Virus record (IMG/VR): IMGVR_UViG_2541047903_000002
Strand: one strand, 5' to 3'
Length of the DNA: 23,450 bases
From: a virus
Taxonomy: Duplodnaviria > Heunggongvirae > Uroviricota > Caudoviricetes
Shown: piece by piece, positions 945 through 18,424 of the stretch
Layout: every line of letters starts with the position of its first letter
How positions within the stretch are numbered: the first letter of the stretch is position 1
Translations under genes and position numbers: made by a program
The notes under the pieces: model-generated
The model's input: the letters and a program-made list of their open reading frames with translations, nothing else
What the model was told of the DNA's origin: nothing
Database searches by the model: none

Positions 945-989
945 CTGATGAATCCCCTAATGATTTTTATCAAAATCATTAAGTTAAGG

Positions 990-1059
990 TAGATACACAT
1001 CTTGTCATATGATCAAATGGTTTCGCCAAAAATCAATAATCAGACAACAAAATGTGCGA
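990..1059 (-). ncRNA. IS10 RNA-OUT antisense RNA (position inferred from the known IS10 layout)
   Basis: Established IS10 organisation: pOUT transcript is complementary to the 5' end of the transposase mRNA. Placement relative to the tnp ATG at 1052 is inferred, not read as a defined transcript. Confidence 0.4.
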
Positions 1060-2260
1060 ACTCGATATTTTACACGACTCTCTTTACCAATTCTGCCCCG
1101 AATTACACTTAAAACGACTCAACAGCTTAACGTTGGCTTGCCACGCCTTACTTGACTGTAAAACTCTCACTCTTACCGAACTTGGCCGTAACCTGCCAAC
1201 CAAAGCGAGAACAAAACATAACATCAAACGAATCGACCGATTGTTAGGTAATCGTCACCTCCACAAAGAGCGACTCGCTGTATACCGTTGGCATGCTAGC
1301 TTTATCTGTTCGGGCAATACGATGCCCATTGTACTTGTTGACTGGTCTGATATCCGTGAGCAAAAACGGCTTATGGTATTGCGAGCTTCAGTCGCACTAC
1401 ACGGTCGTTCTGTTACTCTTTATGAGAAAGCGTTCCCGCTTTCAGAGCAATGTTCAAAGAAAGCTCATGACCAATTTCTAGCCGACCTTGCGAGCATTCT
1501 ACCGAGTAACACCACACCGCTCATTGTCAGTGATGCTGGCTTTAAAGTGCCATGGTATAAATCCGTTGAGAAGCTGGGTTGGTACTGGTTAAGTCGAGTA
1601 AGAGGAAAAGTACAATATGCAGACCTAGGAGCGGAAAACTGGAAACCTATCAGCAACTTACATGATATGTCATCTAGTCACTCAAAGACTTTAGGCTATA
1701 AGAGGCTGACTAAAAGCAATCCAATCTCATGCCAAATTCTATTGTATAAATCTCGCTCTAAAGGCCGAAAAAATCAGCGCTCGACACGGACTCATTGTCA
1801 CCACCCGTCACCTAAAATCTACTCAGCGTCGGCAAAGGAGCCATGGATTCTAGCAACTAACTTACCTGTTGAAATTCGAACACCCAAACAACTTGTTAAT
1901 ATCTATTCGAAGCGAATGCAGATTGAAGAAACCTTCCGAGACTTGAAAAGTCCTGCCTACGGACTAGGCCTACGCCATAGCCGAACGAGCAGCTCAGAGC
2001 GTTTTGATATCATGCTGCTAATCGCCCTGATGCTTCAACTAACATGTTGGCTTGCGGGCGTTCATGCTCAGAAACAAGGTTGGGACAAGCACTTCCAGGC
2101 TAACACAGTCAGAAATCGAAACGTACTCTCAACAGTTCGCTTAGGCATGGAAGTTTTGCGGCATTCTGGCTACACAATAACAAGGGAAGACTCACTCGTG
2201 GCTGCAACCCTGCTTACTCAAAATCTATTCACACATGGTTACGTTTTGGGGAAATTATGA
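1052..2260 (+). CDS. IS10 transposase
   Basis: 402-aa ORF MCELDILHDSLYQFCPELHLKRLNSLTLACHALLDCKTLTLTELGRNLPTKARTKHNIKRIDRLLGNRHLH... matches the IS10/Tn10 transposase as I recall it. Confidence 0.9.
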   Translation: MCELDILHDSLYQFCPELHLKRLNSLTLACHALLDCKTLTLTELGRNLPTKARTKHNIKRIDRLLGNRHLHKERLAVYRWHASFICSGNTMPIVLVDWSDIREQKRLMVLRASVALHGRSVTLYEKAFPLSEQCSKKAHDQFLADLASILPSNTTPLIVSDAGFKVPWYKSVEKLGWYWLSRVRGKVQYADLGAENWKPISNLHDMSSSHSKTLGYKRLTKSNPISCQILLYKSRSKGRKNQRSTRTHCHHPSPKIYSASAKEPWILATNLPVEIRTPKQLVNIYSKRMQIEETFRDLKSPAYGLGLRHSRTSSSERFDIMLLIALMLQLTCWLAGVHAQKQGWDKHFQANTVRNRNVLSTVRLGMEVLRHSGYTITREDSLVAATLLTQNLFTHGYVLGKL

Positions 2261-2273
2261 GGGGATCTCTCAG

Positions 2274-4129: not shown

Positions 4130-4335
4130 GTGTTAATCCTCAAAACTTTATGCCCGGGCGCAAAAGTACGTGTTTTGTCTTTGCTTATTCGCCACCCGTC
4201 TTTACGGGCCTCTTTTGCACAACCAGACCATGACGTACCGATATACTCACCGAAGTCTGGCACTGGATATACACCTTCCGTACACTGGCGACAATCACAA
4301 TAGAGATGCATGGTGTAACTTGCGGCAATAGCCAT
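4126..4335 (-). CDS. Small Cys-containing protein (possible zinc ribbon)
   Basis: MAIAASYTMHLYCDCRQCTEG...; stop overlaps the downstream start (ATGA); start placed at an internal ATG that overlaps the stop of an upstream reading frame. Confidence 0.4.
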   Translation of the reverse strand: MAIAASYTMHLYCDCRQCTEGVYPVPDFGEYIGTSWSGCAKEARKDGWRISKDKTRTFAPGHKVLRINT

Positions 4336-4508
4336 ATCACTCTCTTTTTCCCTGAAGCATGGCAGCGTGGCAGGCATCCTCTACGCCCTTAACTGCATCT
4401 GCGCAGTAGTTATAGCGATTGCATTCCACTAACTTCTGCCTGAGATTTTCAATTGCTTGCGCGACATCAGCCTGTATTTGAAGTGGTCAACAAAAACTGG
4501 CCACCGAG

Positions 4509-5656
<1,148 letters not shown>

Positions 5657-5864
5657 TATGGCACCTGTGTTGTTCTGAGGTGAGCATATCACCTCTGTTC
5701 AGGTGGCCAAATTCAGTAAACCACTTCACTTAAATAGTGGATTGCGGTAGTAAAGATTGTGCCTGTCTTTTAACCACATCAGGCTCGGTGGTTCTCGTGT
5801 ACCCCTACAACGAGAAATCGGATAAACTCTATTCACCCCTACAGAGAGCAAAAGAGAAACGCCG

Positions 5865-6446
5865 ATGAACAACTCATGGTGGCAGGAACTAATGCATTTT
5901 TTCCTGCAAGGAATGACACTTAAACAGTTGATTCATATGCTAATCATCCTGATCATATTGATTATTGTTATGCCGGTAAGCGTAAAAGAATGGATAAACC
6001 TGCATAGTCCAGAAATCCTTCCTCATTACTGGATGTATTACATCCTGTTGTTTTGCGTTAGCTATGTGCTTAACGGCGTTGTTAATTCCGCTTATCACGC
6101 TGTGACTGAAAGAATTGAGGTATTCGCTGCTCAGAAGCGCAAATCTAAAGAAGAAAAATATGTGCAAGATTTGTTTGATTCGTTAACTCTTGGAGAAAGA
6201 GCGTATTTGGCATTCGCTGTAGCCGCTAATAACCAGCTACAAACGGAAAAGGGCGCTCATGAATCAATTTCATTGCTCAAAAAAGGACTCCTCGTTCGAA
6301 GGCCTCCTGCTGTTGGATATCCTGATACCGACCGTTTCGTTATCCCTGAAAGCTATAGACATGAGTGCTACATTAGGTTTGCCGGGAAGGCAGACAGCCT
6401 TATGGATGAACTTATCGCTCAGGATAAGCATGGCAAAAACAAGTAA
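5865..6446 (+). CDS. sieB: Putative superinfection-exclusion protein (SieB-like), membrane protein
   Basis: 193 aa with a hydrophobic N-terminal region (LIHMLIILIILIIVMPV, YILLFCVSYVLNGVV); divergent from and adjacent to N, in an AT-rich segment. Call is by position and composition. Confidence 0.5.
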   Translation: MNNSWWQELMHFFLQGMTLKQLIHMLIILIILIIVMPVSVKEWINLHSPEILPHYWMYYILLFCVSYVLNGVVNSAYHAVTERIEVFAAQKRKSKEEKYVQDLFDSLTLGERAYLAFAVAANNQLQTEKGAHESISLLKKGLLVRRPPAVGYPDTDRFVIPESYRHECYIRFAGKADSLMDELIAQDKHGKNK

Positions 6447-6462
6447 TTAGCAAATGAATTTA

Positions 6463-6735
6463 TCATCTCGCCGTCAGTTGTTTTGATTTCCGGTAGCCTG
6501 CCGCGTAAAGAGCTACGTTCGGAAGACAAGTTGAACCTTCATATTTTCTGGTCAACGTTGTCAGAGTTATCACTTCTGCTCTCATTGCTGGTTTGAGCTT
6601 GCATTGCAAGACCACTCGTGAAGGGGTTGGCCTGTGTAGCTTGTCGGAGCTGATCGCCTCCTGACTTTGCAGATTTGCGCGACGAGCTCTACGGCGAGAA
6701 GCTGCGGTGCCTTTAAATTCTGTTTTTCTGGACAT
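6463..6735 (-). CDS. N: N-type transcription antiterminator
   Basis: Arginine-rich motif GTAASRRRARRANLQ near the N-terminus; C-terminus VALYAAGYRKSKQLTAR resembles P22 gp24; GGGAGG Shine-Dalgarno before the ATG at 6735. Confidence 0.8.
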   Translation of the reverse strand: MSRKTEFKGTAASRRRARRANLQSQEAISSDKLHRPTPSRVVLQCKLKPAMRAEVITLTTLTRKYEGSTCLPNVALYAAGYRKSKQLTAR

Positions 6736-6834
6736 GGATTCCTCCCGAATAAACTTTGGCGATGCAATCTCGAAGCTCCTCCTGAGACGGTTGCTTCGGC
6801 ATTGCATCCCACAGCTTATGTGGTTGGGTGATCT

Positions 6835-7171: not shown

Positions 7172-7924
7172 TTATGCTGCAAGTCTCTTAACCCAAGTCT
7201 CTCTTTTGGAGAATGGTAGAACTTGGCTTGATTCATGGAAGAGTAAGGAGAGTTGTTGCATTTGATCACCAATTGCTTCGCTGTCTATAACAACAAATCT
7301 GTTGTTATACTCCTCACTTGAAGCTTTAAGATCAATTAGTTTCCCAAGCAATGAGTAAGCACTATTCCAGCTTCCTCCGTGTTTCACGCTTGATGTAAAA
7401 ACGTATTTAGGTATGTCGGTTTTTATTGTTACAGGGACGGTAATTTGATGTCCACTCAAGCCATATACGTTTTCACGAAGAGAAAGTGCGTCTCTAAGCT
7501 CTGTGTGATATAGATAATCAATAACCATACTTTCAAACTTTTCAGCTTGAACTGGCTGATACCAGTCTAACGACAAAGTTGATGCGAGTATACCAGCTCT
7601 AATTATGTTCGATGTAATCGCACCGACATCCTTTTCTGTTGCCCAAGCAATGATTTCTCCTCGAGCATTGAGTTCTGCGCCTTCTTTAAGCAGTAATTGT
7701 CGTATCTCATCAAGTCGTTTTTTGGTAAGCGAGATCCCTCTTGCCTCCATATTCATTAAGGCATCGCATCTGTCACTAACTAAATACCTACCATTGACTT
7801 CACGGATAAAGGCACCGACATGCTCTCCATCATCACAGTAAGTGAATGGACTGATAATTCTCAAGGTCTTGCCTATTGGATGGCATTCGAAACCTAGTTG
7901 TGAGATCACTGTTGAGCACATCAT
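7172..7924 (-). CDS. Hypothetical protein, second gene of the cI-linked cassette
   Basis: 250-aa ORF; start ATG overlaps the stop of the upstream gene (ATGA); AT-rich; no family recognised. Confidence 0.7.
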   Translation of the reverse strand: MMCSTVISQLGFECHPIGKTLRIISPFTYCDDGEHVGAFIREVNGRYLVSDRCDALMNMEARGISLTKKRLDEIRQLLLKEGAELNARGEIIAWATEKDVGAITSNIIRAGILASTLSLDWYQPVQAEKFESMVIDYLYHTELRDALSLRENVYGLSGHQITVPVTIKTDIPKYVFTSSVKHGGSWNSAYSLLGKLIDLKASSEEYNNRFVVIDSEAIGDQMQQLSLLFHESSQVLPFSKRETWVKRLAA

Positions 7925-8478
7925 ATTCCAAACCCCATTTGCCCCGACTCATCTTCAAGCGGTAAAGGTATTCTCCCAGAGTAAGTTATGTTCAGATGTT
8001 TACAGAAGTAATTCCAATACCCTACCAGGTCATCTGGGTTTATGTCATCTTCGATTGGAAACGCTATTCTATCACTATAGTATCCAGCTTCTTCATAGTA
8101 TACATGGTAGTGAGCACCGTAAATGATATCTTGGTACTTCGGATGATCGACCTTGTAACTATTCGTGTGTTTGTCAAAGTGATAGGTATCTACCGCGAAA
8201 ACCCTCTTGTTATGATAGAAAGCAATAATATTTATTTTAGGGTAAGAAATCGGGTCATCAGGTTCTGAATCCTGATCTGGTTTCCATTTCAGTTCAAACT
8301 TTAGCCCTTGTATAGGTATACAATCCTCATCCAAGGGGATGATATGGGCTTGTAGCCACATATCAGAGCGACTTGGTTTCTGTTTCCATTTAACGCCAGA
8401 AAAGTTAACTATTTTTTTACAATAAAGTACTTTATCAACTTCTACTTGGCTTGGCTGATAATCATCTATTTTTGCCAA
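7921..8478 (-). CDS. Hypothetical protein, first gene of the cI-linked cassette
   Basis: 185-aa ORF starting 39 nt after the cI stop (track start is TTG; true start uncertain); acidic, Tyr/His-rich C-terminal half; AT-rich. Confidence 0.65.
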   Translation of the reverse strand: MAKIDDYQPSQVEVDKVLYCKKIVNFSGVKWKQKPSRSDMWLQAHIIPLDEDCIPIQGLKFELKWKPDQDSEPDDPISYPKINIIAFYHNKRVFAVDTYHFDKHTNSYKVDHPKYQDIIYGAHYHVYYEEAGYYSDRIAFPIEDDINPDDLVGYWNYFCKHLNITYSGRIPLPLEDESGQMGFGI

Positions 8479-11884: not shown

Positions 11885-11916
11885 AGGCCTGCAGGTAATC
11901 GCAGGCCTTTTTATTT
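11885..11916 (+). terminator. Intrinsic terminator (tR2 equivalent)
   Basis: Hairpin AGGCCTGC-AGGTAATC-GCAGGCCT followed by TTTTTATTT between ren and ninB. Confidence 0.7.
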
Positions 11917-11932: not shown

Positions 11933-12373
11933 ATGAAAAAACTAACCTTTGAAATTCGATCTCCGGCACATCAGCAAAACGCTATTCACGCAGTACAGCA
12001 AATCCTTCCAGACCCAACCAAACCAATCGTAGTAACCATTCAGGAACGCAACCGCAGCTTAGACCAAAACAGGAAGCTATGGGCCTGCTTAGGTGACGTC
12101 TCTCGTCAGGTTGAATGGCATGGTCGCTGGCTGGATGCAGAAAGCTGGAAGTGTGTGTTTACCGCAGCATTAAAGCAGCAGGATGTTGTTCCTAACCTTG
12201 CCGGGAATGGCTTTGTGGTAATAGGCCAGTCAACCAGCAGGATGCGTGTAAGCGAATTTGCGGAGCTATTAGAGCTTATACAGGCATTCGGTACAGAGCG
12301 TGGCGTTAAGTGGTCAGACGAAGCGCGACTGGCTCTCGAATGGAAAGCGCGATGGGGAGATCGGGCTGCATGA
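11933..12373 (+). CDS. ninB: NinB recombination protein
   Basis: MKKLTFEIRSPAHQQNAIHAVQQILPDPTKP... matches lambda NinB from memory. Confidence 0.9.
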   Translation: MKKLTFEIRSPAHQQNAIHAVQQILPDPTKPIVVTIQERNRSLDQNRKLWACLGDVSRQVEWHGRWLDAESWKCVFTAALKQQDVVPNLAGNGFVVIGQSTSRMRVSEFAELLELIQAFGTERGVKWSDEARLALEWKARWGDRAA

Positions 12374-12897
12374 CTATCAAATCAAATACGCCAGCACACG
12401 ACAAGGACTGCTGGCAAACGCCGCTTTGGCTTTTTGATGCACTGGATATTGAGTTTGGATTCTGGCTGGATTCGGCAGCGAGCGACAAAAATGCTCTGTG
12501 CGCTCACTGGCTAACTGAGGACGACGACGCGCTCAATTCTGAGTGGGTAAGCCACGGTGCAATCTGGAATAACCCACCGTACAGCAATATCAGGCCGTGG
12601 GTGGAAAAAGCCGCTGAGCAGTGTATACAACAGCGACAGACGGTAGTGATGCTTGTGCCAGAGGATATGTCTGTCGGATGGTTCAGCAAGGCTCTGGAGA
12701 GTGTTGACGAAGTTCGTATTATCACTGATGGACGGATTAATTTTATCGAACCATCGACAGGGCTGGAGAAGAAGGGAAACAGCAAAGGCTCCATGCTGCT
12801 GATTTGGCGACCGTTCATCAGTCCTCGACGGATGTTTACTACCGTATCCAAAGCGGCATTGATGGCGATCGGGCAGGGCGTCAGGAGGGCTGCATGA
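12370..12897 (+). CDS. Phage-type DNA N6-adenine methyltransferase
   Basis: NPPY catalytic motif (WNNPPYS); ATGA overlaps with ninB upstream and ninE downstream. Confidence 0.8.
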
Positions 12898-13070
12898 GAC
12901 GACAGCGACGAAGCATCACCGACATAATCTGCGAAAACTGCAAATACCTTCCAACGAAACGCTCCAGAAATAAACGCAAGCTAATCCCAAAAGAATCTGA
13001 CGTAAAAACCTTCAATTACACAGCCCACCTGTGGGATATCCGGTGGCTAAGATATCGTGCGAGGAAATGA
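12894..13070 (+). CDS. ninE: NinE
   Basis: [29 protein letters not shown]... matches lambda NinE from memory. Confidence 0.85.
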
Positions 13071-14120: not shown

Positions 14121-14205
14121 AGTCAGAGATAACAATCAACTAATACTGTTTTGTTGATTTTTGCTTGTAATTGGCGTTCTGGTCTGATTTTTGTGGAGTA
14201 AGTTG

Positions 14206-14589
14206 ATGCGTGATATTCAGATGGTTCTTGAGCGTTGGGGTGCGTGGGCGGCTAATAATCATGAAGATGTGACCTGGTCGTCCATTGCCGCCGGTTTTAA
14301 GGGATTAATTCCTTCAAAAGTAAAATCTCGCCCGCAATGTTGTGACGATGACGCGATGATCATTTGCGGGTGCATGGCCCGTCTGAAAAAGAACAACAGC
14401 GATTTACACGATTTATTAGTAGATTATTATGTATGTGGTATGACATTCATGTCACTGGCAAGTAAGCATTGCTGCTCGGATGGTTATATCGGGAAAAGGT
14501 TACAGAAGGCTGAGGGCATAATTGAAGGGATGTTAATGGCATTAGATATCCGGTTAGATATGGATATCGTTGCTAATAATTCTAATTGA
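14206..14589 (+). CDS. Q: Late-gene antiterminator Q (DLP12/phage-82 type)
   Basis: [24 protein letters not shown]... with Cys-rich zinc-binding region; position after rusA. Confidence 0.85.
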
Positions 14590-14777: not shown

Positions 14778-15860
14778 TTAGAACTGATAAACCAGACCTA
14801 CAGCGACGATGTCGTCGGTATCAATACCAGCTGTTTTGGTAAACTTACTATCGTCAATTAAGTTGATTTTGTAATCAACAAAAGTGGACATGTTTTTATT
14901 AAAGTAGTAAGTAGCACCGACATCGACATACTTGACTAAGTCTCGGTCACCATGAACACCAAGGTCTTTACCTTTTGACTGAAGGTAAGCAACAGATGGA
15001 CGCAGACCGAAGTCAAACTGATATTGTGCTACTGCTTCAAAGTTTTGTGCTTTGTTTGCAATATGGTTATTACCAAAAACGGTCATATTCTGAGTTTCAG
15101 AATATGTGGTAGCCAGATAGATATTGTTCGCATCATATTTCAGGCCTGCAGCCCATACTTCCGCATTTTTGCCGGAGGCATTGAATTTGCTCTTACCATA
15201 GGCGACCTGACCGTCAGTGCGATCTGATTTAGCATAGGTTGCACCCACGCCGAATCCTTCATACTCATAAGTAGTGGAGAAACCGAAACCATCACCATTG
15301 GCTTCAGTTACGTCAGTGCGGTCATTTTTACCCTGATACTGAGCAGCAAAGTTCAGGCCATCGACCAGACCAAAGAAGTCGTTGTTACGATAAGTTGCAA
15401 CACCAGTAGTGCGACCAGTCATGAACACATCTGTTTGGGTCCAGGTATCACCACCGAATTCTGGCAGAACGTCAGTCCACGCACCGATGTCGTATGCTAC
15501 ACCGTAGTTACGGCCGTAATCGATTGAGCCGTAATCACCAAATTTCAGGCCTGCAAATGCAAGACGGGTTTTGTCTTTGGAAGAACCTTGAGATTCAGCA
15601 CGGTTGCCTTTGAATTCATATTCCCACTGACCGAAACCAGTCAGTTGATCGTTGATTTGGGTTTCACCTTTGAAGCCAAGACGGGCATAAGTAGTATCAC
15701 CATCATCTGCATCATTAGAGGAGAAGTAGTGCTTGGCATTAACTTTCCCGTATAGATCCAGCTTGTTACTGTCTTTATTATAAATTTCAGCTGCCTGAGC
15801 AGACATCGCCATCAGTACTGATGCAGCTACAGCAGAAATTGCCACTGTTAATTTTTTCAT
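14778..15860 (-). CDS. nmpC: Outer-membrane porin of the OmpC/OmpF/NmpC family, apparently intact
   Basis: Signal peptide [23 protein letters not shown], porin-like beta-barrel sequence, C-terminal ...VGLVYQF. Confidence 0.9.
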
Positions 15861-16287
15861 TGTACGCCCTTTTTTTGAACTTTTATTAAAAAATGATGTC
15901 ACTGCGCGATAAATATTCATCTAATCAATGTGATTATTTCAAGATGTAAGTTTTAGTTTCTCATTTAATTTGTGAAGTAGATCTCTATTTTTATCTGAAC
16001 CTTTTCTATCTAATCCTATTCATGGCTCTTGTCTGAACAAAAATAAATCTATTAGCTAATTTATATTAATGGCACTTATTTATAAGTGCTCTATAATTCT
16101 TTAGCTTAATTTAAACAAACTAAAAATAACATCGGAAATTATTAACTGGTTATTTGTTGAAGTTTTCTTATGCATTTGTGGTGGTGTTTTGAACACTCGG
16201 TGGCATTCTCACAAATATCATTTAGTAGTTTACGTACGTAAAAAATTGGTTATGCTGTTAAGAGTGGTTACTTCGTCACACAGCTTA

Positions 16288-17619: not shown

Positions 17620-17650
17620 AGCTGCCCATATCGATGGGCAACTCATGCAA

Positions 17651-17944
17651 TTATTGTGAGCAATACACACGCGCTTCCAGCGGAGTATAAATGCCTAAAG
17701 TAATAAAACCGAGCAATCCATTTACGAATGTTTGCTGGGTTTCTGTTTTAACAACATTTTCTGCACCACCACAAATTTTTGCTGCATCGACAGTTTTCTT
17801 CTGCCCAATTCCCGAAACGAAGAAATGATGGGTGATGGTTTCCTTTGGTGTTACTGCTGTAGGTTTGTTTCCAACAGTAAACGTCTGTTGAGCACATCCT
17901 GTAATAAGCATTGCCAGAGCGGCAGAAAACAACATTTTTTTCAT
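17651..17944 (-). CDS. bor: Bor lipoprotein (serum-resistance, Iss-like)
   Basis: MKKMLFSAALAMLITGCAQQTFTV... matches lambda Bor from memory. Confidence 0.85.
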   Translation of the reverse strand: MKKMLFSAALAMLITGCAQQTFTVGNKPTAVTPKETITHHFFVSGIGQKKTVDAAKICGGAENVVKTETQQTFVNGLLGFITLGIYTPLEARVYCSQ

Positions 17945-18424
17945 CTTATTATCCTGCATTGTTAAAAACGGCAGAATCCTATGTGACAACAATTAAACGA
18001 TAGTTAAATGGATTGATGAAAATTAAAACTACACAGGTGGGCTCAGACTATTGGAGGAAGTTGGGGACACTCAGAATCCTGTGGAATGAAATAAACCGGT
18101 CTATCCGTCCATTACCCTTTTAGCTGCGCTGTATCGTCGCCGTATTCCCGCATTAACCATGACCGTAGCCCGACGGGGAATTCCTTCTGCGTGAGTGTGC
18201 GGGAATAATTAAAAACGATGCACACCGGGTTTTTACCGCGTTAATGATTCGCGGGTTTATCCCGGTGCGATGGTGGAAGAAACAGGAAGCTGTATTACAG
18301 AAAGTGCTACTACTGTATCCCGATGCGATGTATGTAATGTGAGTCAGATAATGGCACAGGATGTGGTGATGTGGCAGTCTGGAACACAGGATATATTGTC
18401 AGAATAAGACCCGTAGGAATAAAA

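Follow-up and report, generated by a model that had tools for sequence, protein, structure and literature searches.

An orphan Dam-type adenine methyltransferase, almost certainly directed at GATC, in the standard slot between ninB and ninE of a lambdoid prophage

The closest described relatives of the methyltransferase analyzed here are encoded by the Stx phages VT2-Sakai and 933W. For VT2-Sakai, one paper, with reference to Radlinska & Bujnicki 2001, states that the enzyme M.EcoVT2Dam 'is known to target 5'-GATC-3'' (PMC6602927), and another counts VT-2 among the phages with shown Dam-like activity, restricting homology with the cellular Dam to the enzymes of T2 and T4 (PMC7139368). The full annotation of VT2-Sakai contains a single methyltransferase, orf32 (NP_050531), a protein of 175 amino acids encoded between NinB and NinE, and it is assumed here that orf32 is M.EcoVT2Dam, as it is the sole methyltransferase found in this phage. 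Assigning the name to another VT2-Sakai protein was considered and rejected, given that only one methyltransferase is annotated and that a 2806-aa open reading frame lacks a methyltransferase domain. The role of phage Dam enzymes has been described as 'still not well understood' (PMC7556043), and a literature search on the Pfam family PF05869, to which the enzymes discussed here belong, yielded nothing about function in lambdoid phages.

The window, that is, the whole stretch of 23,450 nucleotides that was analyzed, is a lambdoid prophage close to the icd-adjacent one in E. coli ATCC 25922, which covers 94% of the window at 100% identity; the missing 6% has the size of an IS10 element. The features on which the analysis is built are the following, in the order of their positions:

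945..2273, plus strand: IS10 (ISVsa5/IS10-left type) in the prophage integrase gene, 1329 bp, with a 9-bp target duplication
6463..6807, minus strand: N antiterminator gene (PF25694 N_peptide, E 9.7e-33)
11885..11916, plus strand: tR2-like intrinsic terminator between ren and ninB, an 8-bp stem with 6 GC pairs followed by a run of T, matching lambda in sequence and position
11933..12373, plus strand: ninB (orf) recombination mediator, lambda-type allele (PF05772, E 1.1e-54), near-identical to lambda ninB DNA
12363..12373, plus strand: upstream junction GGGCTGCATGA, where the ..AA-stop end of ninB and the ATG of the methylase overlap
12370..12897, plus strand: phage Dam-type orphan N6-adenine DNA methyltransferase gene, orthologue of M.EcoVT2Dam, 175 aa plus stop, 528 bp (PF05869, TIGR01712)
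12412..12483, plus strand: codons for W-Q-T-P (residues 15-18) and F-x-L-D-x-A-A (residues 31-37), putative AdoMet-binding region judged from family conservation and the structure model
12571..12582, plus strand: NPPY codons (residues 68-71); in N6-adenine methyltransferases this is the catalytic motif IV, and it does not vary among 35 members of the family
12887..12897, plus strand: downstream junction, where GGGCTGCATGA is repeated exactly and the ..AA-stop end of the methylase and the ATG of ninE overlap
12894..13070, plus strand: ninE (PF05322, E 1.8e-41)

The methylase open reading frame is intact and overlaps both neighbors by four nucleotides: its ATG (12370-12372) overlaps the ninB stop codon TGA (12371-12373) in an ATGA at 12370-12373, and its own TGA (12895-12897) overlaps the ninE start codon ATG (12894-12896) in an ATGA at 12894-12897. 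The original prediction, which had read an N6-adenine methyltransferase with an NPPY motif and ATGA overlaps at both ends from 12370 to 12897, is thus borne out by the coordinates as well as by the PF05869 and TIGR01712 assignments. A longer reading frame that begins with GTG at 12310 (195 aa) was discarded, because nearly all full-length homologues have about 175 residues and align from the MT(I/L)K start; a GGAG motif 11 nt upstream of the ATG at 12370 also counts for the ATG over the GTG. An antisense reading frame at 12504-12851 (115 aa) was taken to be a by-product of the methylase coding strand. The Pfam matches downstream of ninE are NinX, RusA and then the Q antiterminator.

The assignment to the family is far beyond chance, as judged from the sequence profiles. 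The match to PF05869, 'DNA N-6-adenine-methyltransferase (Dam)', extends over the full length (residues 4-169 on profile positions 1-167 of 169) with E 3.7e-65 and 219.1 bits against a cutoff of 28.1, and the NCBIfam equivalog TIGR01712, 'phage N-6-adenine-methyltransferase', is matched with E 1.2e-79 and 265.6 bits against a cutoff of 97.05. In an alignment of 35 relatives with 59-86% identity, the residues N68, P69, P70 and Y71 are invariant, as are T17, P18, F31, L33, D34 and A36, while W15 and Q16 are nearly so. A ..AA terminus, as in NinB and the window methylase, is common to many members of the family. The W-Q-T-P and L-D-x-A-A motifs lie about 30-50 residues N-terminal to NPPY, and therefore the putative AdoMet-binding part would come first and the catalytic part second, with nothing between them.

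Searches of the PDB by sequence, with the single protein and with a profile of the 35 sequences, returned no related entry, and the structural comparison was therefore based on a predicted model. The AlphaFold model, built on the 35-member alignment, is confident (pLDDT 89, pTM 0.87) and has the class I fold of AdoMet-dependent methyltransferases: residues 31-36 are predicted to form the first strand of the Rossmann-like fold, and NPPY follows a beta strand at 64-68, like motif IV after strand 4 in class I methyltransferases. M.TaqI is the best match among DNA methyltransferase folds. Much larger enzymes align with about 140 of the 175 model residues through their catalytic domain, which leads to the view that the phage enzyme lacks a separate recognition domain. 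The target adenine would be flipped into the NPPY pocket and the methyl group passed from AdoMet to N6. It can be speculated from the model that GATC is read by a less confidently predicted hairpin around residues 121-140 or by the C-terminal helix.

The window methylase is identical in 174 of 175 residues to VT2-Sakai orf32 and, likewise, in 174 of 175 to ST933Wp34 of phage 933W (NP_049494). The only differing residue is at position 51, which is D in the window, A in VT2-Sakai and V in 933W, and this column varies within the family in the alignment with 35 relatives. Because of this near-identity to M.EcoVT2Dam, which is reported to be GATC-specific, the target of the window methylase is almost certainly GATC. 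The window itself contains 71 GATC sites, compared with 90 +/- 8 expected from dinucleotide-preserving shuffles (99 of 100 shuffles had at least 71). GATC is thus mildly under-represented, and the site density is no sign of a special target.

The gene had been described as inserted between ninB and ninE, which is misleading. A DNA alignment of the window, lambda and VT2-Sakai showed that the window is near-identical to lambda through ninB, that from GGGCTGCATGA on it follows VT2-Sakai with the methylase, whereas lambda has ninC and ninD, and that all three rejoin at ninE. It is because of this three-way mosaic that the methylase is viewed as a common alternative cassette in a standard slot, the product of routine mosaic exchange in the nin region of lambdoid phages, and not as an unusual insertion. 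The 11-mer GGGCTGCATGA has exactly two matches in the window, one per end of the cassette; the same junction is also present at lambda ninB/ninC and at VT2-Sakai ninB/dam, and the downstream end in VT2-Sakai carries it with one mismatch. It may serve as a conserved linker in nin regions, helping cassettes to be exchanged or genes to be coupled in translation.

The same arrangement recurs in hundreds of phages and in 29% of the complete E. coli genomes. The 528-bp gene is 100% identical in the phages ev207, ev017, PhiR57_1 and PhiR63_2, and copies with at least 95% identity are present in 244 phage records, of which many belong to Stx1- and Stx2-converting phages. Of 5426 complete E. coli genomes, 1566 carry such copies, at most five each. 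Among the matches listed, the order ninB-methylase-ninE is conserved, with the annotation 'phage N-6-adenine-methyltransferase' between NinB and NinE. With its more distant members, the family is represented in 1906 phage records, among them those of T1-like phages, Staphylococcus phage 80 and the lactococcal 936-group. The gene is thus already known, named in RefSeq (the ATCC 25922 copy is WP_000153286.1, 'phage N-6-adenine-methyltransferase') and very common, and its discovery value is small, a single residue separating the protein from an enzyme characterized in 2001.

Transcription of the lambda nin region from pR has to await loss of the repressor and N antitermination. The tR2-like terminator upstream of ninB and the N gene listed above have their counterparts in lambda, and by analogy expression of the nin genes, the methylase among them, should depend on antitermination by N, which would place the methylase among the delayed-early lytic functions. 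Taken together, the gene very probably represents a small, single-domain, AdoMet-dependent enzyme of the HP1/T1/VT2 'Dam' family, carried as a GATC-methylating orphan cassette with a lytic role. Such an enzyme would act on the adenine of GATC, the site of the host Dam, without belonging to the host Dam family, and its cassette would be translationally coupled to ninB and to ninE. Its synthesis would await infection or induction and the action of N, with next to no expression in a stable lysogen. In the lytic cycle, when host Dam is limiting or missing, the enzyme would maintain full GATC methylation of the fast-replicating phage DNA, and the methylated progeny DNA would then withstand enzymes that cut unmethylated GATC and would resemble host DNA to methyl-directed systems. 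The role of the methylase is most likely GATC methylation of replicating phage DNA in lytic growth.

Observations on related prophages bear on the proposed silence in lysogens. Host dam is reported to be essential for stable lysogeny of 933W (PMC3342100). Since 933W carries an orthologue of the window methylase and host dam is needed all the same, the prophage copy seems not to provide Dam activity in lysogens, and prophage methyltransferases have been described as often transcriptionally silent (PMC4659465). The orthologue in Phi24B, a 528-bp 'dam' coding sequence, was detected as expressed in lysogen cultures (PMC3342100). This signal could reflect spontaneous induction, and there may be some expression in lysogens or in an induced subpopulation.

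It should be noted that the prophage in the window looks defective. IS10 is flanked by the perfect 9-bp target duplication CGCTTAATA at 936-944 and 2274-2282, and it is 100% identical to copies in R100 and other plasmids. Remnants of the integrase gene lie at 1-915 and at about 2283-2481 on the minus strand, IS10 being about 66 codons from the integrase start; the remaining 304-aa reading frame keeps the Phage_integrase catalytic domain, and the closest relatives of the ATCC 25922 type have no IS10 at the integrase site. Because IS10 interrupts the integrase gene, the prophage probably cannot excise. In the ATCC 25922 relative, the stretch from int to sieB contains two ISEc52-like copies together with ea22, exo, bet, gam, kil, cIII and ral; in the window, one ISEc52-like IS3 element at about 4130-5865 (reading frames 4509-5327 and 5354-5692, minus strand) adjoins sieB. 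No exo or bet reading frame was found among those of the window, and for this reason about 6 kb of the early-left region seem, from the sequence, to be deleted, a second sign of a defective prophage. Since the prophage looks defective, the methylase may currently be without any function.

Further genes of the prophage were noted in passing. Two co-directional genes at 7172-8478 on the minus strand, between N and the cI-like repressor and hence in the position of rexA/rexB in lambda, encode proteins of 250 aa (DUF1828) and 185 aa (weak DUF6978 match). The pair matches the PADLOC candidate PDC-M24 (M24B full-length with E 4.7e-10, M24A partial with E 4.8e-4), and a prophage-encoded anti-phage module is possible on the strength of these matches. 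An OmpC-family porin gene (14778-15920, minus strand) sits a short way downstream of the gene for the Q antiterminator (14191-14589), and a gene for the Iss (serum-survival) lipoprotein is located at about 17650-17990 on the minus strand, after the lysis genes, as judged by its position in the ATCC 25922 annotation. Porin and Iss genes are typical cargo of lysogenic conversion.

Other explanations of the enzyme and its isolation have to be weighed. The specificity might be other than GATC or relaxed, like that of the non-specific prophage enzymes M.EcoGI and M.EcoGII, which would fit a very small enzyme that in the model has no separate target-recognition domain, and some prophage methyltransferases are indeed promiscuous (PMC4659465); moreover, the GATC assignment comes second-hand, through papers citing Radlinska & Bujnicki 2001. 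However, one residue in a variable column is all that separates the methylase from the enzyme reported to be GATC-specific, and GATC is repeated for VT-2 by two independent papers (PMC6602927, PMC7139368), so that another or a relaxed specificity is highly improbable. Drozdz et al. 2012, on non-specific adenine methyltransferases, mention neither VT2 nor HP1. Alternatively, a restriction-modification system could have been lost except for this methylase, or the methylase could be partnered by a restriction gene at another place in the prophage. PADLOC also matches type II methyltransferase models, with E 5.3e-08 and thus more weakly than its best match, 'orphan methyltransferase', and two candidate defense genes, unrelated to the methylase, are present at 7172-8478. 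Yet that pair lies in the immunity region, 4 kb from the methylase and on the opposite strand, and matches a different candidate system, the 4-bp overlaps with ninB and ninE leave no space for a partner, and the conservation of the three-gene order among the phage and genome matches listed speaks against this reading as well. No cognate endonuclease gene adjoins the methylase, as it would in a type II system, and no restriction endonuclease was found by Pfam and PADLOC scans of the window reading frames scanned or in the annotation of the ATCC 25922 relative. A restriction-modification origin is therefore extremely improbable, and the earlier description of the enzyme as an orphan, with no restriction partner in view, is upheld within these searches.

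The original prediction had also pointed to a GATC site around position 1011 in a resident IS10 and to possible effects of the methylase on this element and on host epigenetic regulation. Both the element and the site are indeed present: IS10 contains GATC at its positions 67-70, which correspond to 1011-1014 of the window and precede the transposase ATG (1052) by 37 nt, and at 1320-1323, which correspond to 2264-2267 at the inner end; one site close to the transposase promoter and another at the inner terminus are what is expected of a Dam-regulated IS10. Control of IS10 by Dam is established knowledge, and these are reportedly the two sites through which Dam methylation restrains the element (Roberts et al., 1985). 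If the methylase were active in the lysogen, it could alter host epigenetic regulation and modulate transposition of the resident IS10, a reading to which the expected placement of the sites, the very probable GATC target and the detection of the Phi24B orthologue in lysogen cultures (PMC3342100) lend some weight. On the other hand, E. coli Dam already methylates these sites, and additional Dam could do no more than reduce the time for which they stay hemimethylated after replication; the methylase lies behind the tR2-like terminator in the repressed pR operon; and stable 933W lysogeny reportedly needs host dam although 933W has the methylase (PMC3342100). Furthermore, IS10 and the methylase are 10 kb apart and linked only by the prophage they share, and the methylase occurs in 1566 genomes, with the closest relatives lacking IS10 in the corresponding prophage. 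An effect on IS10 or on host epigenetics is thus quite improbable, and this part of the original prediction is not sustained. It is also very unlikely that Dam made by the prophage at a low level, or at the time of induction, speeds the re-methylation of GATC sites in IS10 or in prophage control regions and thereby damps transposition or stabilizes the prophage, but if this were true, an orphan methylase of a phage and a transposon sensitive to Dam would be functionally linked within one element.

The window methylase was also compared with the closest known systems. In VT2-Sakai and 933W, the orthologous gene has the same 528 bp and directly follows ninB with an ATGA overlap, and in VT2-Sakai, as in the window, ninE lies directly downstream. 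The two loci differ in the ninB allele, which is of the lambda type in the window and of a divergent type in VT2-Sakai, and the window contains no stx genes, unlike the Stx phages VT2-Sakai and 933W. In lambda, ninC and ninD occupy the slot of the methylase between ninB and ninE, with GGGCTGCATGA at the ninB end in both cases, but ninC is annotated as PAPS-reductase-like and the two cassettes share no DNA similarity. The HP1 Dam and T1 Dam family (PF05869, TIGR01712) consists, like the window methylase, of small, single-domain enzymes with NPPY; relatives in T1-like phages carry the annotation Dam, and the 933W record describes its methylase as 'similar to methylases of bacteriophage HP1 and T1', although T1-like and other non-lambdoid members are only about 30-40% identical to the window methylase. 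To the alpha-class enzymes E. coli Dam and T4 Dam (PF02086, MethyltransfD12), in contrast, the window methylase has no detectable sequence relationship: a Pfam scan at E <= 0.01 gave PF05869 only and no D12-class match, the protein is about 100 residues shorter, and its model lacks the target-recognition domain that E. coli Dam and T4 Dam have between the AdoMet-binding and catalytic regions. The GATC specificity common to the PF05869-type and the cellular Dam enzymes is accordingly treated as convergent (PMC7139368).
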